Below, piece by piece: positions 21,646 to 49,541 of a stretch of 49,707 bases of DNA. The stretch comes from a virus. Its lineage: Duplodnaviria > Caudoviricetes. The position numbers were made by a program, and so were the translations under genes. The stretch lies in IMG/VR virus record IMGVR_UViG_3300027863_000054, positions 1-49,707 of that record; one strand, 5' to 3'. The notes beneath the pieces are model-generated. The model made no database searches, was not told the origin of the DNA, and worked only from the letters and a program-made list of their open reading frames with translations. Position 1 is the stretch's first letter; every line of letters begins with the position of its first letter.

Positions 21646-21659
21646 TTTTTACTCTCCTT

Positions 21660-22016: not shown

Positions 22017-22045
22017 TCTGCCTCCTTTTCACCAAATAATACCTA

Positions 22046-22402: not shown

Positions 22403-22414
22403 TTTGCCTCCTTT

Positions 22415-23208: not shown

Positions 23209-23580
23209 TTATAAATATCCTAAAGCTTTTCTGATTCTTTTTGATGTTCCTTCATCCCATCCTTTTCCTTCTAACCTTGAATAAATCCAAGCAGTAGCAA
23301 AAGCAGGCACATCAATTTCGTCATGTAAATCGGGATTGTTAGATACTACACTTAAACCTCCCCCTACCTCTACAAAAGCATTTACCGCTTCTACGACATT
23401 GTTCCATTCTTTTTTAGCATTTTCATTGTATCTTTGAATGGCTACTTTTAGGTCTTCCATTCTTTTTTTCACTTCATCTGCTTTTCTCCGCTCTGACTCG
23501 TCTCTTGCCTTTTTTAATTCCTCTTCTGTCGGTGGTTTAAATATATCCTGCTCTAATAAACTCTCTAATAATTTTTTCAT
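23209..23580 (-). CDS. Protein with the LRR-family 22-aa N-terminus (MKKLLESLLEQDIFKPPTEEEL) fused to an unrelated helical domain
   Basis: 5' DNA identical to that of LRR genes; no repeats. Confidence 0.75.
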   Translation of the reverse strand: MKKLLESLLEQDIFKPPTEEELKKARDESERRKADEVKKRMEDLKVAIQRYNENAKKEWNNVVEAVNAFVEVGGGLSVVSNNPDLHDEIDVPAFATAWIYSRLEGKGWDEGTSKRIRKALGYL

Positions 23581-24371
23581 ACTATTATCTCACCTTTTAC
23601 TTCTGATACTTTGCTTACATCCTCTCTAGTAAATTTAACTAGATTATCATAACAATAAAAACCTCTTCCTACATATTCTGGTGCTCCCTCTAAAGAGGTT
23701 AACTTGTTATGAGAACAACCAAAATTTCCTCCTACATATTTAGGTGCTCCTTCTAATGAAGTTAAATTGTTGTCATGACAAACAAAATTTCCTCCTACTC
23801 TTTCAGGTGCTCCCTCTAAAGAGGTTAAATCGTTAAAAGCACAATCAAAATTTCCTTCTACTCTTTCTGGCGCACCTTTTAAAGAGGTTAAATTGTTCTT
23901 AAAACAATAAAAATTTCCTCCTACATATTTAGGTGCTCCTTTTAAAGAAGTTAAATTGTTATGAGAACAATTAAAATACTCACCTACATATTTAGGTGCT
24001 CCTTCTAAAGATTTTAACTTGTTACCACGACAATCAAAATTTCCTTCTACTCTTTCTGGCGCACCTTTTAAAGAGGTTAAATTGTTATAAGAACAATAAA
24101 AACTACCACCTACATATTTAGGTGCTCCCTCTAATGTAGTTAATCCACACTCATAACAATAAAAATTTCCTTTTACTTTACCAAACTTGATTATAAATTT
24201 ACCGTTTTTAACAACACTACTTAAATTATACAAACTACAATCAAAATCATAAGTTCCATCTGGATTCAGTTTACCGCTATATCCTTCTATAAATCTTTTT
24301 AACAATTCTTCCTCTGTAGGCGGTTTAAATATATCTTCCTGTTCTAAAAGTTTTGAAAGTAGTTCTTTCAT
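23577..24371 (-). CDS. Variable LRR protein (8 x 21-aa repeats), outlying paralogue
   Basis: PKYVGGxFxCxxNxLTSLEGA repeats; N- and C-caps shared with eight paralogues. Confidence 0.88.
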   Translation of the reverse strand: MKELLSKLLEQEDIFKPPTEEELLKRFIEGYSGKLNPDGTYDFDCSLYNLSSVVKNGKFIIKFGKVKGNFYCYECGLTTLEGAPKYVGGSFYCSYNNLTSLKGAPERVEGNFDCRGNKLKSLEGAPKYVGEYFNCSHNNLTSLKGAPKYVGGNFYCFKNNLTSLKGAPERVEGNFDCAFNDLTSLEGAPERVGGNFVCHDNNLTSLEGAPKYVGGNFGCSHNKLTSLEGAPEYVGRGFYCYDNLVKFTREDVSKVSEVKGEIIV

Positions 24372-25795: not shown

Positions 25796-27247
25796 TTACG
25801 CCAAGCTGCTTACGGTTCCATAGGTGAACAGTCCATGGTTCACCACTTTATAACCTGCTGATGACAAGAAGCCTTTCTGCGCTCTTAAATCAGCTGTTAT
25901 AAGTGTTGGAGTGGTGAATAATGGAATATAAGGTGCATAAATAAACCCTGCAAAAAGATAGCTATCACCTTTAAAGCCCATAAGATACTCATTGCTCGAG
26001 AAGAATGGGTCTTGAATAACTATCTTGCCATCTAAATTTCCAATTTCAATCGGTCCAGTTGGTACATCAGGAATTCCCGTAGCAGGTTTAAAGTTAGGCT
26101 GAAGTTGTTTAATTACTCTTGCCACATTATTTCCTGCCACGATAAAGTTCCCAATGCCTCTTAAGGTTTTGGCAAAGATGTTATTTGAACCCTTCTCAAA
26201 CCTATCGAGTATCTCATATTTCTTCCAAAGCCATTCTTGACCACTCTGAACTGTTGCACTCCAATCACCAATCGGAGCAGCAGCCAAACTGGACTTGCTG
26301 GCTTCTAACATCATGTCAAGTCCTAAATGGTCGAGTTCAAATTTAATTTCTCCACCTAAGAACTTGACAACTTCATCTTCCAGCACAAGTCCGTGTGCTT
26401 TCTCCAAATCAATAGCAGCCCCTAAAGTATAGAAGGCTTTCAGTGGGAAGTCCTCTGCTTCTACCATCTCTGAAACAAGGCTAATGTCTACTTCAGGAAC
26501 TCCCACACCACCAGCCATCTTCTCATAGTTGTATCTATATGTCGCTTTAACTTTTGCTCCATTGGCAGGTGCAGTGTGGAAAGTCACACTTAATGCACCG
26601 GTTGTATAGTTAATTGTTCCAGAACCACCCGCTGAACCAGTTAAGGTTCCATCGCCATTGTCTACAAAAGTCTCAGTTCCATCAGTTACAGTCACTGTTC
26701 CTGCTTTAACTGGCTTGTAGTCAAGAGTCTTGGTAAAGGTCTTGGTTGACCCATCACCAGTTCCAACTAATTCGTTGTAGACAATAGTTCTGGCATATTG
26801 CTGTTGAGCAGTTCCATAAGCATGACCGGTCTTTGCACCAATCATAGTTTCGCCTGCTTCCACTTCGCCTTTCTTTGAACCGTATTTCACATCGAGATAG
26901 AACACCGCAGCCTGCCTACGGTCTAATGCCTGCACAATTGCTATACGATTTAGCACTAAACTGGGTAGCAAGGCAGCAATTACCGGCAATTGAATGCCAA
27001 GAAAGCTAATGTTGTCTTGGTAAGTAGTCTCAAAGATTTTCTGCCGAGTTCTTAATCCTCCATCAATAAGAGCGTTCTCTAATACTTGTGACATATTCAT
27101 TTTATCCCATTCAGATAAAGAACGACCCTCATATTTTTGAAGGAATTTATCGGCAGCATCCAGATATGGTTTCCAAGACTCTACCAGCAACTTTCTCTTG
27201 GCTTTCATTGCCTCTAATCTTGTCTCAAGTTGCTTCTGTATGTCCAT
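25796..27247 (-). CDS. Major capsid protein (T4 gp23-like) with a beta-rich insertion domain
   Basis: VLEN...IFE-T prodomain, LKAFYT..AAIDLEKAHG, MGFKG...AGFIYAPYIPL are gp23 motifs. Confidence 0.95.
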   Translation of the reverse strand: MDIQKQLETRLEAMKAKRKLLVESWKPYLDAADKFLQKYEGRSLSEWDKMNMSQVLENALIDGGLRTRQKIFETTYQDNISFLGIQLPVIAALLPSLVLNRIAIVQALDRRQAAVFYLDVKYGSKKGEVEAGETMIGAKTGHAYGTAQQQYARTIVYNELVGTGDGSTKTFTKTLDYKPVKAGTVTVTDGTETFVDNGDGTLTGSAGGSGTINYTTGALSVTFHTAPANGAKVKATYRYNYEKMAGGVGVPEVDISLVSEMVEAEDFPLKAFYTLGAAIDLEKAHGLVLEDEVVKFLGGEIKFELDHLGLDMMLEASKSSLAAAPIGDWSATVQSGQEWLWKKYEILDRFEKGSNNIFAKTLRGIGNFIVAGNNVARVIKQLQPNFKPATGIPDVPTGPIEIGNLDGKIVIQDPFFSSNEYLMGFKGDSYLFAGFIYAPYIPLFTTPTLITADLRAQKGFLSSAGYKVVNHGLFTYGTVSSLA

Positions 27248-27248
27248 A

Positions 27249-30200
27249 TTATTTTCCCTCCTTTATCCCAAACATACCTGACATAATCTGGTTTATCCTT
27301 TCATAAACAGGATTTGGTTTCTCCTCTCGAGATACTAAAAGTTCACTTCCAACTCCAGAGTGTAGAGTGGCTTCTCTTAAAGTATCTCTTACTTTATCTA
27401 AAACGGCATCCACTTCTTCCTCCGAGGAACATTTCTCAAGAAGTGCTTGAGTTCCTGAAGGAATCAGCTTAGCCAACCCAGATTCCGTTAATTTCTTCCT
27501 TATATATTTTCTAATAGTTTCTTTTCTATTCTCCTCTAACTTCTTTTCAAAATCTATTTTTGTCTCTTGAAGTTTTTTATCATATTCAGTTTTTGCTTCC
27601 TGTAATTTCTTGCTATATTCCAAAATCTTAGCTTCTTTTTCTTTTAAAATACTCTCTTGTCTATTTATTGCCTCTTTTAAACTCCTATTTAACTTTTCCT
27701 TTTCTAAAATTAGAATTTTTAACTTGTCTTTATAGTCTGAAACTGTTTCTTTTAACTTCTCCTTCTCTGCCTTTACCTCTGCTAATCTAATCTCTAAATC
27801 TCTAAGTTCTTTCATCCTTGAATCAACTAAAAGAGTAGTAATTCTTTTTCTGCTCTCCTCAGGAATTTTAGTAAAGTTCTCCTCAAAGAACTTTACTAAA
27901 GTTAAATAGTCTGCTTCCTGAATTTTTCCTTCTGACACTTTCTTGCCTAAAACATCTGCGGATGCTTTGCCAATAATCTCCTTGGCTAAATTAGCGGACA
28001 AATAAGGCTTATACTTATCTAACAAAATACTCTCTATTTCCTCATTAGACTTGCCCTGAGATAAAAGTTCTCTTGCGTCGTCTTCTATATCTATCATCAT
28101 ATTTGAAAACTTGCCTTCCTCTACTACAACAGCAAACTTCTTCGGGTCTTTCGGGTCTTGAGAAACCACACCTTTTTTGTCTCTTGCAAGTTTCTCTGCA
28201 TCCTCTTTCTTCTCGATTCCTCTTGCTATAAATCTCTGTTCCTTTATTCCTTTCTTAAACTTAATCGATTCAAATACCAGCCCAGCCTTTTCCATTTTCT
28301 CCTTCGTAAACCCAATATCTTCTCGCACCTCAAACTCAAATCTGTATGGCTCTTTAACCTTTACTCCCACTAAACCTGCTGACATTAACTCTCCAGTTAA
28401 ATGGTCTTCAATTGTCACTGTATTTATAGTATCCTTCTCAGGAGCGCTCGGTATCTCATCAATAACTCTTTGAGCAGCCTCTTTAGCCTCTTTATAGGTA
28501 TTAAATATACCTATCTCTTTATAAACTGGTTTCCAGTCTTTACCAAAGTATTCAGTTCCCGAAGCCCAATCAAAAACACTATCTTCAGTTTCAATCAAAA
28601 AATCACCTATTGCTGTAACATAGTATTTGTTAGGCAATTTACCAGACCCAACTTTACTATAGTCTTCTGCTTCTATAATTCTCTTAAACTTCTCAATTAC
28701 TTTCTCATCTATTTTACCTTCTGCAAAAGGAAACTTAAGCTGTGCCGGGTCAAAATCCGGCTCTACAGGTTCTCCTGCTAACTTCTTTCTTTGATAAGTT
28801 ACCAAGTTTATAGCAGTCTTATCTCCTTTAATAGCTTTTGCAAGTTGCTCAGCAGTCCCAACCCATTCTACATTTTCCATATAAAGATATTTTTCTCCTT
28901 CTACACCTACATCCCAAATATATCCCATATTCGTAACAGCATAAGGTTCTCGATATGCATCAAATGGTTGCATTTCCCTAAACTTAAGCTTGCCACTAGT
29001 TAGTTTTTCAATCTTCTTTACTTCATCTTCTATTGCTTTAGCCCATTCATAGTATTCACCACCCGGCTCAATATCTCTTTGGCTCATTTCACCGGTTTCG
29101 TTTATAGATTCATGAACTTCTCCTGACTTTTTCTCCAATTCTTCCATCATCTTATAGATAGCCTCTTCATCTTTAATAAGTCCAAATTCCTTCAGTTTAT
29201 CAAAGTGAGGTTCCATATCTTTAATCTGTTTCAATATTACATACGGATAAAAATAAGAATGTGCCTTAATTACATCTTCAAACGACTTGTATAAATTACT
29301 GGGAGTATAAAAATGCTTCGTTCCCGGAGCACTAGACCCTACCGTATCATGCTTTAAAAATGATATAACTGACTCAGCATATACTGACCTTCTTTTATCA
29401 TGCCTTATCGGTCCAATATACAACCTTATTCCTTTTTCCTCATCCCCAACTGTCTTTGCAGGCGTTTCTGCTGTAGGTTTATCAGATGGCCAAGGCAATA
29501 TCCTAATAATAACCAAATCAGAAATCCCACCGTCACTATATAAAGCGTATTCCCCCGGCTTAAAATCTGCCACTGTCAGCTTTGAACCAGCTTCCTTAAT
29601 ATATCCTTCCTTAATTTCTTCCCAAAAATCTGCTGGATATTCTACTATCTCTCCGCTATCCAATTTAATTTTAACTACAACCCCATATCCTTCAGTATAA
29701 CCAGTTTCACTTTGGATTACCCCTGTCTGACCTGCGTGGTCTCCTTTAACTATCTTCACCTTTTTACCCTGTAATCCAAATCCCTTTTCCAATCCTTCAT
29801 TTTTCCGTTTAAAGTACTCTATCTGCCTTAATCTCTTCAATGCTTCCTGTTTTGTATCGTATTCTCCCATCTTTCTGCCTGATTCAGCATATACTACCCA
29901 CTTAGACCCTTCCTTTTTGATAGTTTCTTTTATTATCTCTGTTCCCAGTATGTCCTGAACCAATCTTCCAATTTCACTGTGAGCACCTTCCCAAGACTTC
30001 AATATCTCATCCGGCATATTCTCTATTACATAATCTGTTATTTCTCCAAATCCAGTTAAACCCTCTTCCTTTGCCTTTTTAACTAACTCCCTTACTTTTG
30101 CTTTTCCTTTCAAACCTATAGTTCTTGCTTCACTTACCTTCTCATCCCTAATTCTTACAACCATACCACCTAAATCAACTTTTCCATCTACTTCTTCAGA

Positions 30201-31886
30201 AAACAATCCGAATACCCACACTTCACCAGTTAAAATAACCTTATTAGGGTCTTCTCCATAAACCTCAAAGTCTCCCGTAAAAGACCAATCATAAGCTCCT
30301 TCCTCTGTTGGCTCATTGTTTTCTACTCCATAGTCATATGCTCCTTCAGGTATAACAACGCGGTCAGTTTCTTTAATTACTTTGTTCTGAACTAAGCATA
30401 ACTTTATAGCCTCTGCAATTTTAGAAACTAAATTTCTAACCTCTACCTCTTCACCAATTTCAAAATCAAACTCTGTTCCTTTTTGCTCTACTAAGCTTTC
30501 ATCCATTTCCCATTCTTGTTTTTCCTTAAACCTTACTAACTCAACATTGTCTCCTAATCTTAGTTCGTAAATAGGAATTACATACAAGCGCTTAGAAGAT
30601 GGCTGTATTTCTTGTTCTCTACCAAGATTGAAGGCAGCAAGAACATACTCACGGTCTTTACCCTTTACAATATCATTTATATATAGACAGTCCCCCTTAA
30701 AAAGCGTTATCATAGTATCACATTCTTCCTCAAGCTCTTCCAGACTCTTCTTTTCAATATTATCAGGATACCGCCATCTAAATTCCATAACCTGCACCAA
30801 CGGCCATAATAAACGATACACTTTCCCTTTCTCTATCTTGCGTCCGGCTTCTACTATTCTTTTTTCCGATAAACTCCAAGCCTCTGCTATCTCTAACCAA
30901 TCTACTTCCTCTAATGCCCTACCCAACAAATCACTCACTAATCCACTTTTCTCTAACTCTCCGCCTAAAATATCTTCTTCTACAAATTCTTTTAATCTAT
31001 TAGAAAGTTCTAATTCATCTACCTTACCTTTCTCATCTTTTAACTCATCTATAATATCCTTAATTGCATCATATAACCCTTCATCCTCTGAAAGCCACAA
31101 ATTAACAACCCAAGTCTCATAATTCTTCCAGCCTTGATAATCCTCTTTTATCGACTCTTCCTTTAACATCTCCACTAACTTCTTAACTCTTTCTGATATT
31201 TCTTTCTTAACAGATTCTTTCTTTATACTCTCTACTAAAGCCATTGCTTCTGGAGTATTTAACTTCTCACATAGAGCAACTGCAAAGTCAGCATCTATCT
31301 TCTTTGATTCAATTCCTGCTCTTAAGTCTTGAACCAGATTTCTATCTACTCTTTCTGGCAATACTTCCAAAGTAGATGGGTCAGCAGTAAAGTCTATTGT
31401 CACAAATCTATAAGCCTCTGGAACTACATCGTAGTATTTATTTCCCTCTTTATCTACTTCTTCTTTTAATTCTCCATCTGCTCTTGTAGACACTCCTACC
31501 TTCGAACCTGCTTTCAAAAGCGTGTCAATAATCCTGCCATAAGGTGTGTCTAATACATCTAAAGTTGCTTTGACTTTGTTCTCTTTTTCATCTACCCAAA
31601 GATTAGAAACTATATGCGAAGTCTTTTCAAGATTAGACTGAGTAGTCTCTGGATGCTCTGCGTGTCCAAACAAAGTTCTATCTTTTAACTTTCGTAAAAT
31701 GTTATTGTCTTTTAAAACTTTTTCCCAAACCTCTCTTCTATAAATACGATTGTTCTGATTCTTCATACCAATGTTGCAAACTGGGTATGTGACTCTACAT
31801 AGAACACCTTGAGGCAATTCTTTCTCTTCAAATAGTATCGGCTCTTGTAAAACTGTCTCAATTAAAGCAATCTTTTTCTTACTCAT
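27249..31886 (-). CDS. Prohead protease (T4 gp21-like) fused through ~1100 aa of extra domains to a coiled-coil scaffold (gp22-like)
   Basis: NQNNRIY, GHAEHP, LDTPYGRII, VGVSTRADG, IDFTADPS; C-terminal coiled coil; directly upstream of MCP. Confidence 0.88.
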   Translation of the reverse strand: MSKKKIALIETVLQEPILFEEKELPQGVLCRVTYPVCNIGMKNQNNRIYRREVWEKVLKDNNILRKLKDRTLFGHAEHPETTQSNLEKTSHIVSNLWVDEKENKVKATLDVLDTPYGRIIDTLLKAGSKVGVSTRADGELKEEVDKEGNKYYDVVPEAYRFVTIDFTADPSTLEVLPERVDRNLVQDLRAGIESKKIDADFAVALCEKLNTPEAMALVESIKKESVKKEISERVKKLVEMLKEESIKEDYQGWKNYETWVVNLWLSEDEGLYDAIKDIIDELKDEKGKVDELELSNRLKEFVEEDILGGELEKSGLVSDLLGRALEEVDWLEIAEAWSLSEKRIVEAGRKIEKGKVYRLLWPLVQVMEFRWRYPDNIEKKSLEELEEECDTMITLFKGDCLYINDIVKGKDREYVLAAFNLGREQEIQPSSKRLYVIPIYELRLGDNVELVRFKEKQEWEMDESLVEQKGTEFDFEIGEEVEVRNLVSKIAEAIKLCLVQNKVIKETDRVVIPEGAYDYGVENNEPTEEGAYDWSFTGDFEVYGEDPNKVILTGEVWVFGLFSEEVDGKVDLGGMVVRIRDEKVSEARTIGLKGKAKVRELVKKAKEEGLTGFGEITDYVIENMPDEILKSWEGAHSEIGRLVQDILGTEIIKETIKKEGSKWVVYAESGRKMGEYDTKQEALKRLRQIEYFKRKNEGLEKGFGLQGKKVKIVKGDHAGQTGVIQSETGYTEGYGVVVKIKLDSGEIVEYPADFWEEIKEGYIKEAGSKLTVADFKPGEYALYSDGGISDLVIIRILPWPSDKPTAETPAKTVGDEEKGIRLYIGPIRHDKRRSVYAESVISFLKHDTVGSSAPGTKHFYTPSNLYKSFEDVIKAHSYFYPYVILKQIKDMEPHFDKLKEFGLIKDEEAIYKMMEELEKKSGEVHESINETGEMSQRDIEPGGEYYEWAKAIEDEVKKIEKLTSGKLKFREMQPFDAYREPYAVTNMGYIWDVGVEGEKYLYMENVEWVGTAEQLAKAIKGDKTAINLVTYQRKKLAGEPVEPDFDPAQLKFPFAEGKIDEKVIEKFKRIIEAEDYSKVGSGKLPNKYYVTAIGDFLIETEDSVFDWASGTEYFGKDWKPVYKEIGIFNTYKEAKEAAQRVIDEIPSAPEKDTINTVTIEDHLTGELMSAGLVGVKVKEPYRFEFEVREDIGFTKEKMEKAGLVFESIKFKKGIKEQRFIARGIEKKEDAEKLARDKKGVVSQDPKDPKKFAVVVEEGKFSNMMIDIEDDARELLSQGKSNEEIESILLDKYKPYLSANLAKEIIGKASADVLGKKVSEGKIQEADYLTLVKFFEENFTKIPEESRKRITTLLVDSRMKELRDLEIRLAEVKAEKEKLKETVSDYKDKLKILILEKEKLNRSLKEAINRQESILKEKEAKILEYSKKLQEAKTEYDKKLQETKIDFEKKLEENRKETIRKYIRKKLTESGLAKLIPSGTQALLEKCSSEEEVDAVLDKVRDTLREATLHSGVGSELLVSREEKPNPVYERINQIMSGMFGIKEGK

Positions 31887-39040: not shown

Positions 39041-39553
39041 TTATCTTTTAAGCAGGTTCTCGATAATGTTTATCCTTACATCACTTAAAATCTTTTTTCT
39101 AAGTTCTGAATCTATTTCTATTTCCTCCTCCTCTAACTTCTCTCTTCTTTCTAAAACTTCTTTTAACAAGTCAAACGAGCCTTTAGTTTCTCTCTGCTCT
39201 GGCGACTTAACTACAGATGCTTCTTTCGGTATCTCCCTCTGAGCAATCATTTCTATCTGTTTTAAGATTATCTCTTTATTTTTCCCTGTAGGATTTACTG
39301 CCCTGTCATCTATAAGTATCTCCCAGTCTTTTTTGTATGCTTCATCAATAGAGATATACCCATCTGGAACTATACCTCTTTCTTTAAGCCAAGCATCTAT
39401 TTCTTCGTTTTCTCTACCGGAGAAGATAAATACTTGATGACCTTTTGCTTTTAAGTCTTTAACCAATTCTAAAATGTCTCCGATAGGTTCACCGATAGAA
39501 CCATCAGGATTCTTTACTGCTATTGTGTCGTCAAAGTCTATGGCTATTTTCAT
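39041..39553 (-). CDS. HAD-superfamily phosphatase with acidic tail
   Basis: IAIDFDDTI (motif I), FSGR (motif II), LIDDRA (motif IV). Confidence 0.85.
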   Translation of the reverse strand: MKIAIDFDDTIAVKNPDGSIGEPIGDILELVKDLKAKGHQVFIFSGRENEEIDAWLKERGIVPDGYISIDEAYKKDWEILIDDRAVNPTGKNKEIILKQIEMIAQREIPKEASVVKSPEQRETKGSFDLLKEVLERREKLEEEEIEIDSELRKKILSDVRINIIENLLKR

Positions 39554-40215
39554 ACAAATTTCCGACCTTTTACTTCTGATACTTTGCTTACATCCTCTCT
39601 AGTAAATTTAACTGGATTATCATAACAATAAAAATTTCCTCCTACATATTTAGGTGCTCCCTTTAAAGAAGTTAACTGGTTATTAGAACAATCAAAATAT
39701 CCTCCTACATATTTAGGTGCTCCCTTTAAAGAGGTCAACTTGTTGTTATAACAATAAAAATCTCCTTCTACTCTTTCAGGTGCTCCTTTTAAAGAAGTTA
39801 ATTTATTACTAGAACAACTAAAATTTCTTCCTACATATTTAGGTGCTCCCTCTAAAGAGGTTAACTCGTTAACAGAACAATCAAAATATCCTTCCACATA
39901 TTTAGGTGCTCCTTTTAAAGATTTTAATTTGTTATCACGACAATCAAAATCACCGCCTACATATTTAGGTGCTCCCTCTAATGAGGTTAACTCGTTAATA
40001 GAACAATCAAAATAACCTTTTACTTTACCAAACTTGATTAGAAATTTACCATCTTTAACAACACCACTTACATCTTTAATACCCACATCAAAATCATAAC
40101 TACCATCTGGATTCTGTCTGCCTTTATATCTTTCTATAAATCTCTTTATAAGTTCTTCCTCTGTCGGTGGTTTAAATATATCCTGCTCTAATAAACTCTC
40201 TAATAATTTTTTCAT
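39550..40215 (-). CDS. Variable LRR protein (6 repeats)
   Basis: Leader, N-cap, 21-aa repeats, C-cap. Confidence 0.88.
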   Translation of the reverse strand: MKKLLESLLEQDIFKPPTEEELIKRFIERYKGRQNPDGSYDFDVGIKDVSGVVKDGKFLIKFGKVKGYFDCSINELTSLEGAPKYVGGDFDCRDNKLKSLKGAPKYVEGYFDCSVNELTSLEGAPKYVGRNFSCSSNKLTSLKGAPERVEGDFYCYNNKLTSLKGAPKYVGGYFDCSNNQLTSLKGAPKYVGGNFYCYDNPVKFTREDVSKVSEVKGRKFV

Positions 40216-41015
40216 ACTATTATCTCACCTTTTACTTCTGATACTTTCTTGACATCTTCTTCGGTAAATTTAACTGGATTATCATAACAATAAAAATCTT
40301 TTCCTACATATTTAGGTGCTCCCTCTAAAGAAGTTAACTTATTATAAGAGCAATCAAAATCTCCTTTTACTCTTTCAGGTGCTCCCTCTAAAGAAGTTAA
40401 ATTGTCACCGCGACAATCAAAATCTCCACCTACATATTTAGGTGCTCCCTCTAAAGAAGTTAACTGGTTATAAGAACAATTAAAATGTCCACCTACTCTT
40501 TCTGGCGCTCCTTTTAGAGAGGTTAAGTTGTTAGCAGAACAAGAAAAACGCCCACCTACATATTTCGGTGCTCCCTCTAAAGAAGTTAATTTGTTATCAG
40601 AACAATAAAAATCCTTACCTACATACTTCGGTGCTCCCTCTAAAGATGTTAACTTGTTATGAGAACAATCAAAATATCCTTCTACATATTTAGGTGCTCC
40701 TTTTAAAGAAGTTAACTGGTTATAAGAACAATCAAAACCTCCTTCTACTCTTTCAGGTGCTCCCTCTAAAGAGATTAACCCACTATCAGAACAATAAAAA
40801 CCTCCTTTTACTTTACCAAATTTAATTGCAAATTTACCATTTTTAACAACACTACTTACATCATACAAATCACAATCAAAGTCATAACTACCATCTGGAT
40901 TTAGTTTACCGTTATATTCTTTTACAAACTTAACTATTTTTGCCTGTTCTAATTCCTCTTCTGTCGGTGGTTTAAATATATCCTGCTCTAATAAACTCTC
41001 TAATAATTTTTTCAT
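40212..41015 (-). CDS. Variable LRR protein (8 repeats)
   Basis: Same architecture; ATGA-coupled. Confidence 0.88.
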   Translation of the reverse strand: MKKLLESLLEQDIFKPPTEEELEQAKIVKFVKEYNGKLNPDGSYDFDCDLYDVSSVVKNGKFAIKFGKVKGGFYCSDSGLISLEGAPERVEGGFDCSYNQLTSLKGAPKYVEGYFDCSHNKLTSLEGAPKYVGKDFYCSDNKLTSLEGAPKYVGGRFSCSANNLTSLKGAPERVGGHFNCSYNQLTSLEGAPKYVGGDFDCRGDNLTSLEGAPERVKGDFDCSYNKLTSLEGAPKYVGKDFYCYDNPVKFTEEDVKKVSEVKGEIIV

Positions 41016-41839
41016 ACTATTATCCTACCTTTTACTTCTGATACTTTCCTAACTTCTTCTTCTGTAAATTTAACTGGATTATCACGGCATTCAAAATCTC
41101 CACCTACATACTTCGGTACTCCCTTTAAAGAGGTTAATTTGTTATCAGAACAATAAAAACCTCCTTCTACTCTTTCAGGTGCACCTTTTAATGAAGTTAA
41201 CTGGTTATCAGAACAATTAAAATATCCCCCTACATATTTAGGTGCTCCTTCTAAAGAAGTTAAATTGTTACCAGAGCAATTAAAATATCCTCCTACATAT
41301 TTAGGTGCTCCTTTTAAAGAGGTTAAATTGTTATAAGAACAATTAAACTCTCTTTTTACTCTTTCTGGAGCACCTTCTAAAGAAGTTAAATTGTTATCAG
41401 AACAACCAAAATATCCTCCTACATATTTCGGTGCTCCTTCTAAAGAAGTTAATTTGTTATAAGAACAATAAAAATCTCCTCCTACTCTTTTTGGAGCACC
41501 TTCTAAAGATGTTAACTTGTTATGAGAACAATCAAAATATCCTTCTACATATTTAGGTGCTCCCTCTAAAGAGGTTAATTTGTTATAAGAACAATAAAAA
41601 TCTCCTTTTACTTTACCAAACTTGATTATAAATTTACCATCTCTAATAATACCACTTACATCTTTAATATCCACATCAAAATCATAACTACCATCTGAAT
41701 TTAGTTTACCATTATATTTCTTGACAAATTCCTCAATTTTTCTCTGTTCAAATTCTTCTCTTCTCTGTTCTAATTCTTCCTCTGTTGGTGGTTTAAATAT
41801 GCTATCCTGCTCTAACAAACTTTCTAATAATTTTTTCAT
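41012..41839 (-). CDS. Variable LRR protein (8 repeats)
   Basis: Same architecture; ATGA-coupled. Confidence 0.88.
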   Translation of the reverse strand: MKKLLESLLEQDSIFKPPTEEELEQRREEFEQRKIEEFVKKYNGKLNSDGSYDFDVDIKDVSGIIRDGKFIIKFGKVKGDFYCSYNKLTSLEGAPKYVEGYFDCSHNKLTSLEGAPKRVGGDFYCSYNKLTSLEGAPKYVGGYFGCSDNNLTSLEGAPERVKREFNCSYNNLTSLKGAPKYVGGYFNCSGNNLTSLEGAPKYVGGYFNCSDNQLTSLKGAPERVEGGFYCSDNKLTSLKGVPKYVGGDFECRDNPVKFTEEEVRKVSEVKGRIIV

Positions 41840-42405
41840 ACTTCTATTACACCTTTTACTTCTGATACTTTCCTTACATCTTCTTCGGTAAATTTAACTG
41901 GATTATCATAACATTCAAAATTTCCTCCTACATATTTAGGTGCTCCCTCTAAAGAAGTTAATTTGTTATGAGAACAATAAAAACCTACTACTTTTTCTGG
42001 TGCACCTTTTAAAGATGTTAACTTGTTAAAAGAACAATAAAAACTACCACCTACATATTTAGGTGCTCCTTCTAAAGTGGTTAAATTGTTATGAGAACAA
42101 CTAAAACTTCCTCCTACATATTTAGGTGCTCCTTTTAAAGTAGTCAATTCACACTTATAACAATCAAAATAACCTTTTACTTTACCAAATTTAATTATAA
42201 ATTTACCATCTACAATAATATCTCCTAAACCAATCCTATCAATATTTCTATCAAAGTCATAACTACCATCTGGATTTTGTTTACCGTTATATTCTTTTAC
42301 AAATTTCTCAATTCTAAACTCTTTTCTTGCCTGCTCTAACTCTTCCTCTGTAGGTGGTTTAAATATATCCTGCTCTAATAACAAATTCTCTAATAATTTT
42401 TTCAT
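41836..42405 (-). CDS. Variable LRR protein (4 repeats)
   Basis: Same architecture; one repeat is one residue short (PEKVVGFYC). Confidence 0.88.
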   Translation of the reverse strand: MKKLLENLLLEQDIFKPPTEEELEQARKEFRIEKFVKEYNGKQNPDGSYDFDRNIDRIGLGDIIVDGKFIIKFGKVKGYFDCYKCELTTLKGAPKYVGGSFSCSHNNLTTLEGAPKYVGGSFYCSFNKLTSLKGAPEKVVGFYCSHNKLTSLEGAPKYVGGNFECYDNPVKFTEEDVRKVSEVKGVIEV

Positions 42406-44318
42406 AGCTTTATACCCAATTCAGCTAAAATCTCGACAGCTTTATTTCCGTCTATCTGCGTGTCTTTAGCATCCCAATACATCTTTTTTCCTGACTTGTC
42501 AACTAAAATTGCAATCTTGTCATAGTTATCTCTTTTAGGCTGTTTTCGTATCACAAAATATATAGCATATTTCATAAAATAGTCATAAAAATGATGGCTG
42601 TCGCTCTCTCCAGAAATACACCACTTTGTTCCCTTCCCATACAAGCAAGATGCTTCCCAAGTAGTAATCCTATAAACAAAAGCTTTGTCGTTCTCAAATA
42701 CTTTCTCTGCTCCTTTTATCTTTGCTTCCTTTTCTAACTCCGACTTCGTCAGAGCATCAAATTCCTCTACTTTCTGACCAACCTCTTTCAAAGACTTATA
42801 TGACTGTATATTCCTTGCATCCACTGGCATTACACCCTTATTAACTAACTTATCAAACTTTGGAATTACTCTCTCAAATTCACTAATCTCAGGCTTCTCT
42901 TGAGAATAAATCTTGCACATCCATTCAATATACTTCTTCTGAGAAGTAGGGTCTATTTCAAGAAGCTTGCTAAATATATCCTCTGGAACTTTACCTGTTT
43001 CTACATATTTCTTCCTTGCTGACACCTCTCCCTCCTCTATCACCTCTTCTTTAACAACTTCTCTCTCTTTTTTATATGCTTGCCACTCATCTTCTGCTTC
43101 CCTTGTCAACTGTTTAATCAGAGTATCATCTCCTGCTAATACATTCCTTATCTCTTCCGAACTTCGGGTAAGCAACTTCCTCCAAATCAACGGAATCATA
43201 TTTTGCTTGTCTGCAGGAATCATTCCTACAATCTTTCTATATACACCAGGCCCTGCTAACATATCTCTTGTCTCATCCTCAATCTCTTCTTTTCCCATAA
43301 TCGCCTGAAACTCTTTTGCCAAAGACAGCCACTCATATATACCTTTTACTATCTCGTGGATAAGATACGGAAATATAATTGCTTTTGCTTCTATAGTATA
43401 CGCATCTCCTTCAGGCTTAACTTTTTCCACACCAGCTCGTGCTCCTCCTTTTAAACCGATTTTCTCTATTCCAAAAGGCGTGACCCAATAGCCAAGTTCT
43501 GCTAAAACAGCAACTATACCATACTTGTTTATTAATGTTGGGTCTATCTTGTCAAGCTCATCTTTAACTACATTAAAAAGATAAAACTTATTTACCGCAC
43601 CACCTGTAATCAATAAATTCGCAAATCGCCTCTTGATACTCAACTCTTCCCTAAAAGCAGACGCAAGCAACTTGTTAAATTCCTCTTCAGGAGTTAAATT
43701 TTCTGACCTCTTTTCTAATCTAAAATCTGCAAGAGTTGGAGTATCTAACCTTGCTTCTATTCTTAACTCCTCTCCTTCTACCGCATCTTTGACCATTTCA
43801 AACTCTGGTAGATTCAAAACAACCTCAACAGCAAGTCCTTCTAACCTCTTTTTGTATGAGTGCTCTATCTCAAGAATATCATTCAAGGCTTGCATAGCAA
43901 TAGAAACAAATCCCGGCAGTTTTAACTCAGACGCTCTCTTTCCTGTATATTGTTCAAGTCTTGACAACATACGGTTATACTCATCACTCGTCACCAACTC
44001 TAAATATGACTTTTCTTCACTGGATAACTTCGGAAACAACTTGTTTATAATCTCATCACCTTTTTTTATCCACTTCTGTTTGTCTTCTGAAGTCCAATTT
44101 GGAAAACGAGTCTTTTCTCCTAATCCTTCTGCCCTCTGCAAAAAGAACAATGCTACATCACTCTCTGCTTTTGGCTTCGGAGATATACCCGGTTCAGGAG
44201 CAATAGGACTCTTTGGTTTTGGCTTTATATCTGGCTCTGTTTTCACATCTGGTTCTACTTCTGTGTCTGTCTTCACTTCTTTAAGCTTTTCAATTAAAAA
44301 TTCTAATAACTTTTTCAT
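42402..44318 (-). CDS. Two-domain protein with MKKLLEFLIE leader; C-terminal ASCLYGKGTKWCIS domain
   Basis: Pro-rich linker, LIHEIVKGIYE motif, VKEEVIEE junction, then DPT..KKYIEW and GTKWC motifs. Confidence 0.7.
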   Translation of the reverse strand: MKKLLEFLIEKLKEVKTDTEVEPDVKTEPDIKPKPKSPIAPEPGISPKPKAESDVALFFLQRAEGLGEKTRFPNWTSEDKQKWIKKGDEIINKLFPKLSSEEKSYLELVTSDEYNRMLSRLEQYTGKRASELKLPGFVSIAMQALNDILEIEHSYKKRLEGLAVEVVLNLPEFEMVKDAVEGEELRIEARLDTPTLADFRLEKRSENLTPEEEFNKLLASAFREELSIKRRFANLLITGGAVNKFYLFNVVKDELDKIDPTLINKYGIVAVLAELGYWVTPFGIEKIGLKGGARAGVEKVKPEGDAYTIEAKAIIFPYLIHEIVKGIYEWLSLAKEFQAIMGKEEIEDETRDMLAGPGVYRKIVGMIPADKQNMIPLIWRKLLTRSSEEIRNVLAGDDTLIKQLTREAEDEWQAYKKEREVVKEEVIEEGEVSARKKYVETGKVPEDIFSKLLEIDPTSQKKYIEWMCKIYSQEKPEISEFERVIPKFDKLVNKGVMPVDARNIQSYKSLKEVGQKVEEFDALTKSELEKEAKIKGAEKVFENDKAFVYRITTWEASCLYGKGTKWCISGESDSHHFYDYFMKYAIYFVIRKQPKRDNYDKIAILVDKSGKKMYWDAKDTQIDGNKAVEILAELGIKL

Positions 44319-44350
44319 ACTTCCACCTCTCTACTTTTACATCAATTCTT

Positions 44351-44902
44351 TCATACTTCTATTACACCTTTTACTTCTGATACTCTTCTAACTTCTTCTT
44401 CGATAAATTTAACTGGATTATCATAACAAACAAAATTTCCTCCTACATATTTAGGTGCTCCTTTTAAAGAAGTTAATTTATTACTAGAACAACTAAAATT
44501 TCTTCCTACATATTTAGGTGCTCCCTCTAAAGAGGTTAACTCGTTAACAGAACAATCAAAATATCCTTCCACATATTTAGGTGCTCCTTTTAAAGATTTT
44601 AATTTGTTATCACGACAATCAAAATCACCGCCTACATATTTAGGTGCTCCCTCTAATGAGGTTAACTCGTTAATAGAACAATCAAAATATCCTTTTACTT
44701 TACCAAACTTGATTAGAAATTTACCATCTTTAACAACACTACTTAAATTATACAAACTACAATCAAAATCATAAGTTCCATCTGGATTCAGTTTACCATC
44801 ATGCATCTTTACAAACACATCTATCTTTCTCTGTTCTAATTCTTCCTCTGTAGGTGGTTTAAATATATCCTGCTCTAATAGACCCTCTAATAATTTTTTC
44901 AT
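44351..44902 (-). CDS. Variable LRR protein (4 repeats)
   Basis: Repeats nearly identical to those of 39550-40215. Confidence 0.88.
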   Translation of the reverse strand: MKKLLEGLLEQDIFKPPTEEELEQRKIDVFVKMHDGKLNPDGTYDFDCSLYNLSSVVKDGKFLIKFGKVKGYFDCSINELTSLEGAPKYVGGDFDCRDNKLKSLKGAPKYVEGYFDCSVNELTSLEGAPKYVGRNFSCSSNKLTSLKGAPKYVGGNFVCYDNPVKFIEEEVRRVSEVKGVIEV

Positions 44903-44925
44903 ACTTACGACTCCTTATCAATTTC

Positions 44926-45186
44926 TCATACTACTTCCTCTCCATCAACAGTTATTCTACCATCTACATACAGAATCACTACCTTCTCCCCAGATGTATA
45001 CTTCCAATACGGAGCACTAACTTCAGCTGAACGCTCAAGTTCTCCACCTTCAAGTGGTTCATCAATTAAGCCTTTTTCTTTCAAATACTTCTCTAACACA
45101 TTTTTCAACATCTCTCCTACTTCTATTTTCTCCTCTACCTGTCTTTCTTTTACTTCCTCCTGAATCCCTTCAAGCAATTTTTTCAT
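44926..45186 (-). CDS. Small leader-bearing protein (start corrected to MKKLLEGIQEE), paralogue of 46125-46400
   Basis: AAGGAGG SD before ATG at 45186; shared KYLKEKGLI..PL and LY..GRI.VDG.EV. Confidence 0.75.
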   Translation of the reverse strand: MKKLLEGIQEEVKERQVEEKIEVGEMLKNVLEKYLKEKGLIDEPLEGGELERSAEVSAPYWKYTSGEKVVILYVDGRITVDGEEVV

Positions 45187-45208
45187 TTCTTCCCTCCTTA
45201 CACTTGTT

Positions 45209-45376
45209 TTATTTCTTCTCCTTCTTTTCCTTTTTCTCTGGTTCTTTCTTTTCTTCCACAAATACATAAGCAAGACCTATTGACTTATCTCTAACCCATT
45301 TTCCACCTTCTGCTGGAACTTCATCAGGCGGATTCTTCGGGTCAATCTTAGACCAATCTAATACTGGAATAGCCAT
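45209..45376 (-). CDS. 55-aa hypothetical protein (MAIPVLDWSKIDPKNPP...KEKKEKK); missed by the ORF track
   Basis: GAGGAGG SD; read by eye. Confidence 0.6.
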   Translation of the reverse strand: MAIPVLDWSKIDPKNPPDEVPAEGGKWVRDKSIGLAYVFVEEKKEPEKKEKKEKK

Positions 45377-45377
45377 T

Positions 45378-45419
45378 TCATACCTCCTCTTTACATAAAT
45401 TCTCTAATAGTTTTTTCAT
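45378..45419 (-). pseudogene. Leader-only remnant MKKLLENLCKEEV*
   Basis: ATGA-coupled to the upstream LRR gene exactly as full cargo genes are. Confidence 0.6.
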
Positions 45420-46102
45420 ACTTTTATCCTACCTTTTACTTCCGACACTTTTCTAACTTCTTCTTCGGTAAATTTAACTGGATTACCATAACAATCAAAA
45501 TATCCTCCTACATATTCAGGTGCTCCCTCTAAAGAGGTTAATTTATTATAAGAACAATTAAAATGTCCACCTACATATTTAGGTGCTCCTTCTAAAGAGG
45601 TTAAATTGTTATCAAAACAATAAAAACCTCCTTCTACTCTTTCTGGTGCTCCCTTTAAAGAAGTTAACTGGTTATAAGAACAATCAAAATATCCTCCTAC
45701 ATATTTAGGTGCTCCCTTTAAAGAAGTTAACTGGTTATTAGAACAATTAAAATATCCTCCTACATATTTAGGTGCTCCCTTTAAAGAAGTTAACTGGTTA
45801 TTAGAACAATTAAAATATCCTCCTACATATTTAGGTGCTCCCTCTAATGAGATTAATCCGCTATCAGAACAATCAAATTTACCACCTACTTTACCAAATT
45901 TAATTGCAAATTTACCATTTTTAATAACAAATTTTAAATCATCTCTATATAAAATGCAATCAAAGTCATAAGTTCCATCTGGATTCAGTTTACCATTATA
46001 TTTCTTTATAAACACCTCTATTTTTCTCTGCTCTAATTCTTCTTCTGTTGGTGGTTTAAATATGCTATCCTGCTCTAATAAACTTTCTAATAATCTTTTC
46101 AT
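45416..46102 (-). CDS. Variable LRR protein (6 repeats, two adjacent ones identical)
   Basis: APKYVGGYFNCSNNQLTSLKG occurs twice in tandem. Confidence 0.88.
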   Translation of the reverse strand: MKRLLESLLEQDSIFKPPTEEELEQRKIEVFIKKYNGKLNPDGTYDFDCILYRDDLKFVIKNGKFAIKFGKVGGKFDCSDSGLISLEGAPKYVGGYFNCSNNQLTSLKGAPKYVGGYFNCSNNQLTSLKGAPKYVGGYFDCSYNQLTSLKGAPERVEGGFYCFDNNLTSLEGAPKYVGGHFNCSYNKLTSLEGAPEYVGGYFDCYGNPVKFTEEEVRKVSEVKGRIKV

Positions 46103-46124
46103 TTCTTCTTACTTCATTTAATCA

Positions 46125-46400
46125 CTATTTTACTTCTTTGCCATCTACAAATATTCTACCATTTCGATAGAGCCAAACCTCTCTACCCTTTTTATCTTTA
46201 TAACCAATAGACTTAACAAAAAACCCGTCTACTTTAAGCGGAGGCTCTATCAAACCTTTTTCCTTTAGATATTTCCCCAATATATCCTGTAAAAGGTCCT
46301 CCGCATCCATCTCTTCTATCTCTTCATCATCCATCTCGTCCTCTTCACTTTCATCTACTCTTCGGATTCTTCGGATTATTGTTTCTAACAGCTTCTTCAT
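46125..46400 (-). CDS. Small acidic leader-bearing protein
   Basis: MKKLLETII...VDES; paralogue of 44926-45186. Confidence 0.75.
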   Translation of the reverse strand: MKKLLETIIRRIRRVDESEEDEMDDEEIEEMDAEDLLQDILGKYLKEKGLIEPPLKVDGFFVKSIGYKDKKGREVWLYRNGRIFVDGKEVK

Positions 46401-46428
46401 ATTTCCTCCTTACTTATCCATAAAACTC

Positions 46429-46509
46429 TTATCTTATTTCCCTGCCATCTACGGTTATTCTACCATCTTGATACAAAATTATTTCTCTACTTTCTAATAG
46501 TTCTCTCAT
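46429..46509 (-). pseudogene. Internally deleted paralogue MRELLESREIILYQDGRITVDGREIR*
   Basis: AAGGAGG SD; leader joined directly to the family C-terminal hairpin. Confidence 0.6.
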
Positions 46510-46524
46510 TATTTTTTCCCTCCT

Positions 46525-47202
46525 TTAGATACCAGTGCTTATTATCCTACCTTTTACTTCTGATACTTTTCTGACTTCTTCTTCGGTAAATTTCTTTGGA
46601 TTTCTTCTACAATAAAAATCTCCTCCTACATACTTCGGTGCTCCCTCTAAAGATGTTAACTTGTTATCAGAACAATAAAAACCTCCTTTTACTCTTTCTG
46701 GTGCTCCCTCTAAAGAAGTTAATTTGTTATCAGAACAATAAAAATCCTTACCTACATATTTAGGTGCTCCCTCTAAAGATGTTAACTTGTTACGAGAACA
46801 ATAAAAATCTCCTCCTACATATTTAGGTGCTCCTTTTAAAGAAGTTAAATTGTTATCAAAACAATAAAAATTTCCTTCTATCCTTTCTGGTACTCCTTCT
46901 AAAGAAGTTAAATTGTTAAAAGAACAATCAAAATCTCCTTCTACATACTTCGGTGCTCCCTCTAAAGATGTTAACCCAGTTTCAGAACAATCAAAATAAC
47001 CTTTTACTTTACCAAATTTAATTAGAAATTTACCATCTCTAATAATACCACTTACATCTTTAATATTCACATCAAAATCATAAGTTCCATCTGGATTCAG
47101 TTTACCGTTATATCTTTCTATAAATCTTTTTAACAATTCTTCCTCTGTAGGTGGCTTAAATATATCTTCCTGCTCTAATAGACTTTCTAATAATTTTTTC
47201 AT
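46525..47202 (-). CDS. Variable LRR protein (6 repeats)
   Basis: Same architecture as paralogues. Confidence 0.88.
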   Translation of the reverse strand: MKKLLESLLEQEDIFKPPTEEELLKRFIERYNGKLNPDGTYDFDVNIKDVSGIIRDGKFLIKFGKVKGYFDCSETGLTSLEGAPKYVEGDFDCSFNNLTSLEGVPERIEGNFYCFDNNLTSLKGAPKYVGGDFYCSRNKLTSLEGAPKYVGKDFYCSDNKLTSLEGAPERVKGGFYCSDNKLTSLEGAPKYVGGDFYCRRNPKKFTEEEVRKVSEVKGRIISTGI

Positions 47203-47840
47203 ACTTCTATTACACCTTTTACTTCTGATACTTTCCTTACATCTTCTTCGGTAAATTTAACTGGATTGTCAAAACAAACAAAATTTCCTCCTACATATTT
47301 AGGTGCTCCCTCTAAAGAAGTTAATTTGTTATGAGAACAATAAAAACCTACTACTACTTTTTCAGGTGCTCCTTCTAAAGAGGTTAAATTGTTATAAGAA
47401 CAATAAAAACTACCACCTACATATTTAGGTGCTCCCTCTAAAGAAGTTAATTTGTTATCAGAACAATTAAAATATCCACCTACTTTTTCTGGAGCACCTT
47501 TTAGAGAAGTTAAATTGTTAAAAGCACAATCAAAATCTCTACCTACATATTTAGGTGCTCCTTTTAAAGTAGTCAATTCATACTTATAACAATCAAAATA
47601 ACCTTTTACTTTACCAAATTTAATTATAAATTTACCATCTACAATAATATCTCCTAAACCAATCCTATCAATATTTCTATCAAAGTCATAACTACCATCT
47701 GGATTTTGTTTACCGTTATATTTTTTCACAAACCTCTCAATTCTATCCTTTTCGAACTCTTTTCTTGCCTGTTCTAATTCTTCCTCTGTAGGTGGTTTAA
47801 ATATATCCTGCTCTAACAAACTTTCTAATAGCTTCTTCAT
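47199..47840 (-). CDS. Variable LRR protein (5 repeats)
   Basis: First gene after portal; caps nearly identical to 41836-42405. Confidence 0.88.
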   Translation of the reverse strand: MKKLLESLLEQDIFKPPTEEELEQARKEFEKDRIERFVKKYNGKQNPDGSYDFDRNIDRIGLGDIIVDGKFIIKFGKVKGYFDCYKYELTTLKGAPKYVGRDFDCAFNNLTSLKGAPEKVGGYFNCSDNKLTSLEGAPKYVGGSFYCSYNNLTSLEGAPEKVVVGFYCSHNKLTSLEGAPKYVGGNFVCFDNPVKFTEEDVRKVSEVKGVIEV

Positions 47841-47852
47841 TTCCCCTTCTTT

Positions 47853-49541
47853 TTAGGCCTTTACTACTTCTACTTTAAGCTTTACCTTCCCATAGACACT
47901 TTCCCAAACCTCTTGGTCTTTTCCAGTAGGTAGAAAAGTCTTTAAGTCTGAGGAAACCCTCTGTGGCTCTGTCCTGTTAAAAGCTTCGTTGATTACATAG
48001 TTTATCCGCTCTATATCTTTCTTATCTATCCCTTCTATCTGCAATGCCTTCTGCTCTACTGCTTTCTTAAACCGCTTTATGTCAAAGTCTCCTAACTTCA
48101 ATATCTTATGATTGAAATAATTCAAAAGCTCCTCTTTGTCTAACCCCTCTTCTCCAATATGCTTAAAGATTAAATCCACAAGTTTATCTACTACATCTAC
48201 ACCCTTATCTAAAGCGTTCTTAAGTTCCTCTTCTTCTGCTGAAGATGTAGTTGCCATATTAACTCTAAAGAGGTTCAAATCAGGTGCCATATTCATATAA
48301 GCCAGATGTATCTGGCAAAGCCTCATAATCCCATCAATTAAAGCCCTCTGAAGCCTTCTGCAAGTCCTTGCAAACCTAATATCCAATCTTTCTAATGCTG
48401 ATTCGCCTAGCCCTGACTTAATCTCTGCTCCATATCCTCCTAAAACCTGTAAAGGCACCCTTAAGGCAGCTGACAGCTGATTCCTTAACTCCTCTATATC
48501 CGTAATCCATTTTATGTCTGCCTCTCCTCCGATTTTCTCTATAGATAAATCATTAGTATCCCCCCAAACCGGTATAACTATATCCTCTATAGAAGATAAA
48601 GGACTAAACTTTGACAAAAACTCCGGGTTGTTCGGGTCTATATCCAAAGCCCTTGCTTTCTTTAAAATCTCATCATACTCGTCAATTATCTCTGAAACTG
48701 CCTCTATATTCTCTCCTGAGACCTTTACTTTGTAGATATATCTTAATATCCCCCTTGAAATCCTTGCCATCAGTAAAGCATCCTCCGCCAATCTTAACCT
48801 CTTCCAGACTGGTAAAGCATTGATAATTATAGGAGTTCCATAAGTCGATTCTATCCTCTTTACATCCGGTGATAATATATTTACACTTCTAAACTCTGAC
48901 CACATCGGGTCTCCGTAATAAGGTCTTTTCCTTTTAACCCCTAATAACTTAAAATGCACATATTCCCAAGGCGGCAATAACTTCTCTATAGTAGTTGACC
49001 CGTATCCTAAAGGCGTCTTATAAAACCCGATTAGCCTACCGTGATAATCCGCTCTTGATATATTTATTGGATGTTCTGAATCATCTATTGTAATTATCCC
49101 AAGTCCCGGCTCTGCAATCACTTTTATAAATAAATCCCCGTAAGTTGCTAAAGTATAAGCCCAGTCAAATATCTTCTCTTCTACATCTATTCTATCTAAT
49201 AACTTATTTAACTCATTTAAATACTTCTGATTCTCTGAAGTAATCCAGACTGAAGCATTATGCAGTTGGTCGTAAGTCGTTGCTGTATCAGCATATACTT
49301 CAAGTGCTGAACCTACCAACCAGTGCTGTATTGCTCTATCACACTCTTTATAGATATTCATCCTCTCAAGATTAATCTGGGTAAGTTTCTCCATTACCTT
49401 ATTTAACTCTCTGGATACTACTCCTATCTTACGAAGCATTTCTTTGTCTTTGTCTGATAGTCCTTGCTTGACTTGTTCGGCGGGAATAAAGGCGGGCTTT
49501 TTTTGAAAGAGTTTACCTAAAATATCTAAAAAATTTGGCAT
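47853..49541 (-). CDS. Portal protein (T4 gp20-like)
   Basis: ALEVYADTAT, TYGDLF, YVHFK, YGTPII..A..VWKRLRLAEDALLMARISR, ALRVP, DIRFARTC.RLQ. Confidence 0.9.
   Translation of the reverse strand: MPNFLDILGKLFQKKPAFIPAEQVKQGLSDKDKEMLRKIGVVSRELNKVMEKLTQINLERMNIYKECDRAIQHWLVGSALEVYADTATTYDQLHNASVWITSENQKYLNELNKLLDRIDVEEKIFDWAYTLATYGDLFIKVIAEPGLGIITIDDSEHPINISRADYHGRLIGFYKTPLGYGSTTIEKLLPPWEYVHFKLLGVKRKRPYYGDPMWSEFRSVNILSPDVKRIESTYGTPIIINALPVWKRLRLAEDALLMARISRGILRYIYKVKVSGENIEAVSEIIDEYDEILKKARALDIDPNNPEFLSKFSPLSSIEDIVIPVWGDTNDLSIEKIGGEADIKWITDIEELRNQLSAALRVPLQVLGGYGAEIKSGLGESALERLDIRFARTCRRLQRALIDGIMRLCQIHLAYMNMAPDLNLFRVNMATTSSAEEEELKNALDKGVDVVDKLVDLIFKHIGEEGLDKEELLNYFNHKILKLGDFDIKRFKKAVEQKALQIEGIDKKDIERINYVINEAFNRTEPQRVSSDLKTFLPTGKDQEVWESVYGKVKLKVEVVKA

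Follow-up and report, generated by a model that had tools for sequence, protein, structure and literature searches.

An array of variable leucine-rich repeat genes with putative head-targeting leaders in a T4-like phage

The LRR array and its genomic context

We analyzed an array of leucine-rich repeat (LRR) genes in IMG/VR virus record IMGVR_UViG_3300027863_000054, a 49.7-kb fragment of a phage genome (49,707 nucleotides; hereafter, the window). The window holds the structural module of a T4-like myophage, entirely on the minus strand, which includes genes for portal, prohead protease, Gp23 capsid, sheath, tubes, and baseplate. The Portal_T4, Peptidase_S77, and Gp23 families were all matched in its proteins (Pfam), and the capsid protein is only about 28% to 34% identical to its best matches among phage records. 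An earlier note, made from the sequence of the window alone, had proposed that eight LRR paralogues at 39550–47840 and a ninth at 23577–24371 encode a diversified set of binders delivered in the capsid. All nine were confirmed as intact minus-strand open reading frames (ORFs), named g1 to g9 (Table 1), which encode proteins of 183 to 275 amino acids (aa) with isoelectric points (pI) of 5.1 to 8.8.

Alignment of the paralogues bore out the common leader, N-cap, and C-cap described in that note, and Tandem Repeats Finder returned the proposed 63-bp unit as the period in 9 of 9 genes. The count of 55 repeat units also held, the 64 F-x-C strands comprising 55 full units (4 to 8 per gene) and 9 terminal strands that enter the C-cap. 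Eight of the genes do form an array directly downstream of the portal gene, but it is an interrupted one, with leader-bearing non-LRR genes of 91, 86, and 638 aa, one 55-aa ORF, and two leader remnants in between. ATGA overlaps occur at 6 of the 12 junctions along the array.

Table 1. Coordinates of the LRR paralogues and associated features in the window.
Feature	Position	Strand	Description
LRR paralogue g1	47199..47840	-	213 aa, 5 full units
LRR paralogue g2	46525..47202	-	225 aa, 6 full units
LRR paralogue g3	45416..46102	-	228 aa, 6 full units; paralogue whose fold was modeled
LRR paralogue g4	44351..44902	-	183 aa, 4 full units; mosaic, with N-cap as in g9, repeats as in g8, and C-cap as in g1/g5
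LRR paralogue g5	41836..42405	-	189 aa, 4 full units (one of 20 aa, not 21)
LRR paralogue g6	41012..41839	-	275 aa, 8 full units
LRR paralogue g7	40212..41015	-	267 aa, 8 full units
LRR paralogue g8	39550..40215	-	221 aa, 6 full units
LRR paralogue g9	23577..24371	-	264 aa, 8 full units; downstream of major capsid gene
Leader-bearing non-LRR gene	42402..44318	-	638 aa; inside array; candidate partner of LRRs
Leader-bearing non-LRR gene	46125..46400	-	91 aa; within array
Leader-bearing non-LRR gene	44926..45186	-	86 aa; within array
Leader-only remnant	45378..45419	-	13 codons; overlaps g3 stop
Leader-bearing mini-ORF or remnant	46429..46509	-	26 codons
Leader fusion gene	23209..23580	-	123 aa; LRR leader and linker joined to an unrelated domain
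T4-like portal gene	47853..49541	-	12 bp upstream of LRR array; context gene
Prohead protease and scaffold-like protein	27249..31886	-	1545 aa; rich in [ILV]xE sites; likely processing enzyme; context gene
Gp23-family major capsid gene	25796..27247	-	context gene

Repeat unit, predicted fold, and variable face

Structure prediction for g3 yielded the expected LRR solenoid of parallel beta-strands, with a predicted local distance difference test (pLDDT) score of 94. In full units, the segment V-x-G-x-F-x-C-x-x-N-x-L is one residue longer than the standard LxxLxLxxNxL type, and the Pfam LRR_4 model exceeds its cut-off in 3 of the 9 genes. LRRs whose conserved segment is of the VxGx type have reportedly been described in bacteria and unicellular eukaryotes, in a study that our literature search did not recover; the repeat class itself may therefore already be in print.

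Per-position entropy, computed on the 45 regular internal units (the irregular 20-aa unit was left out), places the variation where the earlier note had located it, at exposed x positions of the LRR strand. Positions 7, 9, 11, and 12 reach 2.56, 2.15, 1.32, and 3.01 bits, compared with 0 to 0.26 bits in the core, an approximately 40-fold difference in variation. The framework is nearly invariant only as regards this core: positions 2, 3, 5, 6, 14, and 19 vary at 0.9 to 1.8 bits, mainly between two or three residues and mostly through K/E swaps and a PKYVG/PERVE dimorphism. The 64 strands carry 49 different four-position face codes. Together, Y, D, N, S, H, G, F, and R make up 96% of face residues (background 36%), and K or E account for 1.2% of them, against 19.8% in the background and 70% at four other variable positions. 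Each paralogue would present a different binding face.

Selection on the variable face

Non-synonymous difference (pN) among 41 distinct units is 0.397 at face codons and 0.009 in the core. With synonymous change at non-face codons as the reference, the ratio for the face is 1.24 (bootstrap 1.03 to 1.51; 41 units) and again 1.24 among 83 units from relatives, whereas a spanning-tree count gives 1.34 (p = 0.03), or 1.35 with the relatives included (p = 0.0004). A same-codon pN/pS (non-synonymous to synonymous) value of 5.8 at the face was put aside in favor of this conservative ratio, because the preference of the genome for T-ending codons inflates it. The p values are themselves optimistic, since the face positions were chosen by their variability and the repeats are related by descent and recombination. 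Nine unrelated arrays further temper the picture: three of them have ratios of 1.53, 1.49, and 1.24, the other six range from 0.82 to 0.94, and only two are significantly above 1. The excess of non-synonymous change anticipated in the earlier note thus finds modest support here (1.24 to 1.35) and falls below 1 in six of the nine other arrays. Strong purifying selection on the core, with neutral to mildly positive change on the face, is a fair reading of these data.

A head-type leader shared with putative cargo

A strict MKKLLE-type leader pattern is present on 21 window ORFs, namely the nine LRR genes and 12 unrelated, cargo-like others, and on 0 of 25 control genes (23 structural or structural-region genes, from shell and tail and including late tail genes, and 2 enzymes). 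In phage T4, according to PMC9026906, propeptides of 10 to 19 residues direct internal proteins to the head and are cleaved after L/I-X-E; among these proteins, IPI blocks a type IV restriction enzyme. The window leader holds L-x-E sites that fit the T4 protease rule, and [ILV]xE sites occur at 4.5 per 100 residues in the protease–scaffold protein, compared with 1.5 to 2.5 in six other structural proteins. The 123-aa fusion gene indicates that the leader is a movable module. Across the viral loci among the matches listed, a looser form of the pattern was found on 89 of 153 LRR ORFs versus 43 of 576 non-LRR ORFs, and the leader recurs, in different wording, in unrelated large phages.

Several points weigh against packaging by means of this leader. 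The pattern was written after the sequences had been seen, and the paralogues are not independent. Among the matches listed, at least half of the LRRs bear the leader in only 23 of 44 contigs; in a 597-kb phage record (G003), 3 of 83 LRR ORFs match the pattern, and the LRR gene inspected in the cultured Vibrio phage VB_VaC_SRILMA has no such leader. The window LRR proteins are also larger and less basic than the T4 internal proteins. Delivery in the capsid hence draws indirect support from the T4-like leader and the head-gene context and is opposed by the array genes of other phages that lack a leader.

Two of the other leader-bearing genes encode a PurD-like ATP-grasp protein (31909–33180) and a nucleotidyltransferase-like protein (17641–18549), the latter with a relative in P0130 that is fused to LRRs; both are candidate injected enzymes. 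The protease–scaffold protein contains approximately 1,100 additional residues, including a DUF7249 domain, and is possibly a polyprotein of head cargo domains.

Reshuffling of the repertoire

The mosaic gene g4 has 287 nucleotides in common with g8 (1 mismatch), 108 in its N-cap with g9 (3 mismatches), and 111 in its C-cap with g1 and g5 (7 mismatches). The latter two genes are alike at both ends and not in the middle, g3 contains an exact internal duplication, and leader DNA is nearly letter-identical between genes. A near-perfect 386-bp tandem duplication at 21656–22431 has produced two identical 118-aa leader-bearing ORFs; it is also found at locus L163 of a relative, whereas L156 has a single copy.

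Comparison of repertoires in related hot-spring contigs confirmed turnover at the same locus, where flanking genes are kept while LRR gene number and repeat count differ. None of 12 complete genes from relatives is identical to any window gene, 10 of 73 of their face codes also occur in the window, and 1 of 81 unit sequences is identical. At one such locus (L155, 1806–1982), a 58-aa gene directly downstream of the portal gene consists of leader and C-cap only, all repeats having been deleted.

Codon usage at the face is strongly skewed. Of the 180 face codons of internal units, 175 have T at the third position; face Gly is encoded by GGT in 14 of 14 and Arg by CGT in 6 of 9, against 33% and 4% genome-wide. 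The hallmark of diversity-generating retroelements, according to PMC5758913, is adenine-specific mutagenesis of a whole repeat. Such mutagenesis was not seen in the framework, where Val is encoded by GTA in 39 of 40 cases, and third positions with an A consensus vary at 0.16 versus 0.21 for T, so that synonymous framework adenines are not randomized. Among 1709 repeat hits in the window, no template copy lies outside the nine ORFs, nor were LRR fragments found in the window outside intact ORFs. Reverse transcriptase was absent from the 38 scanned proteins of the window, itself a genome fragment, from 5 array-bearing records (two at least 90% complete), and from 2 further phage records. Because neither template repeat, reverse transcriptase, nor adenine-specific mutagenesis was found, the diversity likely stems from ordinary recombination. 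The simpler account would be that NAT codons in a C-poor strand undergo point mutation and that unequal crossing-over and gene conversion add to it.

Distribution of LRR arrays among phages

A degenerate repeat scan of viral contigs recovered at least 149 stretches. Among the matches listed, 44 contigs carry such LRR genes, with at least 3 genes in 16 of them and at least 5 in 13, and the LRR genes of each lineage have their own caps. Five whole records contain 21 to 128 profile matches each, which are not copy numbers, and three encode a Gp23 capsid. The 597-kb record has at least 83 LRR ORFs, counted in the 160 kb examined (C1:30001-190000); these (L284–L291) are arranged in blocks on both strands, and most have a conserved acidic tail and lack the head-type leader. 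A 735-kb phage record matched in 16 places. The two metagenome runs that contain most of the array words (shares 0.84 and 0.83) are from hot springs, and either may have yielded the assembly. The runs listed as containing the array included no RNA run, which says nothing about expression.

At the protein level, 7160 of 8000 scored candidates matched, as did 31,695 cluster representatives at an E value of 0.001; the LRR profile matched 17,511 at 1e-10, among which other LRR classes will be included. The Atlas clusters nearest by features are listed as 98% to 100% viral and have few annotated members. Of 312 candidates from a viral scan with alignment A1, none was confirmed as a relative. A literature search covering mainly open-access main texts turned up no report of LRR arrays in phages, and PMC7824862 does not mention LRRs. 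The arrays appear to be a widespread and so far undescribed gene system of phages. We regard this system as real and infer its packaging and targets.

A candidate partner protein

Within the 638-aa protein encoded inside the array, residues 420 to 638 make up an unnamed domain, which other phages carry fused to LRRs. It occurs in 10 of 120 LRR homologues of similar length, 43 of 120 longer ones, and 34 of 136 representative ones, lying N-terminal to the repeats in all but one, and an unfused copy is located within the array of L040. It was modeled with a pLDDT of 85.5, and no fold, activity, or name could be assigned to it. As a point against partnership, only 2 of 5 array-bearing records contain the domain, and it adjoins the array in one.

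The predicted complex of g3 and the domain scored 0.59, compared with 0.01 for the best control; agreement between runs covered at least 67% of contacts, and the partner pLDDT was at least 90. Of 157 solved pairs, 116 attained the score mark, as did 2 of 215 mismatched pairs, although the range from the mark up to 0.60 holds only 18 of the solved pairs, yet both mismatched ones. Docking of the LRRs on the domain is therefore weakly predicted, and would make them exchangeable targeting subunits; alternatively, the model may simply mirror the natural fusions. Further LRR fusions, to PcfJ, dUTPase, and a nucleotidyltransferase related to the 302-aa gene of the window, fit the use of LRRs as a targeting module.

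Comparison with known systems

The T4 internal proteins IPI to IPIII likewise have a short N-terminal propeptide with an L/I-X-E site, are served by T4-like head machinery, and form a cargo set that varies between related phages, but they are mutually unrelated, basic, and 8 to 20 kDa in size (PMC9026906). The putative cargo encoded in the window instead uses one repeat scaffold with a variable face and is not uniformly basic. The LRR system likely works like these variable internal proteins.

A bacterial LRR locus of Flavobacterium psychrophilum resembles the array in its tandem genes, variable repeat number, signs of recombination, hypervariable residues on one face, and strain-specific sets; it differs in that its proteins have a secretion peptide and a type 9 secretion signal and that many broken fragments lie between its genes (PMC10392669). 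By inspection, the window LRRs have a charged leader and a short C-cap, and neither a secretion peptide nor a type 9 signal, including any such Pfam domain, was seen in them.

The likeness to lamprey variable lymphocyte receptors (VLRs) drawn in the earlier note is limited to function, as the window showed neither silent cassettes nor programmed assembly. Unlike VLRs, all window genes are complete and inherited, without somatic assembly from silent cassettes, a stalk, or a membrane anchor. Shared features are constant caps, variable repeat number, and variable concave-face residues; VLRs are also mentioned in PMC10392669.

Internalin J and the IRREKO class have the same 21-residue period and LxCxxNxL strand (PMC2946307), and Internalin J (PDB 3bz5) was the best match among solved structures. 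The remainder of the window unit, TSLEGAPKYVGG, does not match the second half of IRREKO, LxxLDLxx(N/L)xx, the second half of the window units being TSL(E/K)GAP(K/E)(Y/R)V, and scores for the InlJ family of NCBIfam were 43.5 and 57.5 bits against a cut-off of 1700. The window LRR proteins are neither internalins nor VLRs, and secretion or wall-anchoring parts are not evident in the window genes. The LRR–E3 ligase effectors IpaH and SspH, to which fold matches were seen, also use LRRs as a targeting module. Phage LRRs are often fused behind the unnamed domain, PcfJ, nucleotidyltransferase, or dUTPase, whereas the E3 ligase domain was not found in the window genes and the partner domain is of unassigned fold and activity.

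Interpretation and alternative explanations

The reading that we favor, with slightly better than even confidence, is that the nine genes form an inherited LRR family reshuffled by recombination; an N-terminal tag would direct the products into the head, and after injection they would bind different host proteins. Ordinary recombination would reshuffle the genes; the leader would join the prohead core, and the prohead protease of the phage itself would cleave it after L-x-E, in the manner of T4 internal proteins; and the packed proteins would enter the cell and bind host proteins, among which defense proteins are the best guess by analogy with T4 IPI. The LRR fold, face variation, and repertoire turnover proposed in the earlier interpretation stand, whereas capsid delivery has indirect support and the selection excess modest support. 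Were the proteins packaged and able to bind different host proteins, they would represent a widespread, undescribed counter-defense strategy of large phages, and every paralogue would be a ready bait for finding new host defense proteins. Another possible use of this scaffold, which is small, likely heat-stable, and variable at four positions per repeat, is as an engineered binder.

A more ambitious version, which we put forward tentatively, is a modular binder system of large T4-like phages, in which dozens of recombining LRRs, as interchangeable subunits for target recognition, would be packed into the head with the partner domain, be injected, and disable a changing panel of host defense proteins. 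The domain would act in trans here and be fused in other phages, making the system a counterpart of an antibody or F-box repertoire.

It seems unlikely that the LRRs are variable binders made late and acting in the cell unpackaged, with the leader as a common translation-start and recombination module. The frequent ATGA overlaps, the near identity of leader DNA between genes, and the existence of large untagged arrays would suit such binders, but the L-x-E sites fit the T4 protease rule, no control gene bears the leader, late tail genes included, and differently worded leaders recur in unrelated large phages. More doubtful still is a near-neutral expansion of a repeat gene, or a redundant head filler, whose exposed positions drift. 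A face ratio around 1 in most arrays, the free variation of gene and repeat numbers, down to the 58-aa gene without repeats, and the leader-only remnants agree with this, while the intactness of all nine genes with so low a core pN, the avoidance of K and E at the face although other surface positions are 70% K/E, and the retention of at least 83 such genes by one phage argue otherwise. We consider it improbable that the LRRs sit on the outside of the virion and serve to recognize the host: receptor binding would be well served by variable faces, and the preprint on phage Goslar proposes such a role for LRR/beta-helix domains of other proteins, the DUF7941 fibers, yet no known attachment domain was found in Pfam or PHROGs, and the LRR genes, which have head genes and not tail genes as neighbors, have a leader in common with enzyme-like cargo. 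Finally, a programmed diversifier (a diversity-generating retroelement or VLR-like cassette assembly) that writes the variable codons is very improbable, for the T-ending face codons, as an AAT template would yield, and the GGT and CGT usage are outweighed by the unrandomized framework adenines and by the lack of a template outside the nine ORFs and of reverse transcriptase in the window fragment and 7 other records.

Other features of the locus

Promoter and terminator scans of the window gave no excess over shuffled sequences (25 sites versus 38.1, and 3 versus 4.2, respectively). In metagenome runs X1 and X2, the stretch 45503–45538 of g3 is bordered by letters resembling a repeat of clustered regularly interspaced short palindromic repeats (CRISPR), and a host spacer therefore likely targets an LRR repeat. 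The exact CRISPR-like repeat matched no genome, and its looser form matched 110 stretches from many thermophile lineages; no spacer matched the phage convincingly (best 25 of 28), and the host was not identified thereby. A gene for a ParB-like and N6/N4 DNA methyltransferase protein lies within the head-gene region (36996–38315). The last LRR gene is followed, with an ATGA overlap, by a leaderless gene for a HAD-family phosphatase (39041–39553), which comes after the LRR genes in three relatives as well.

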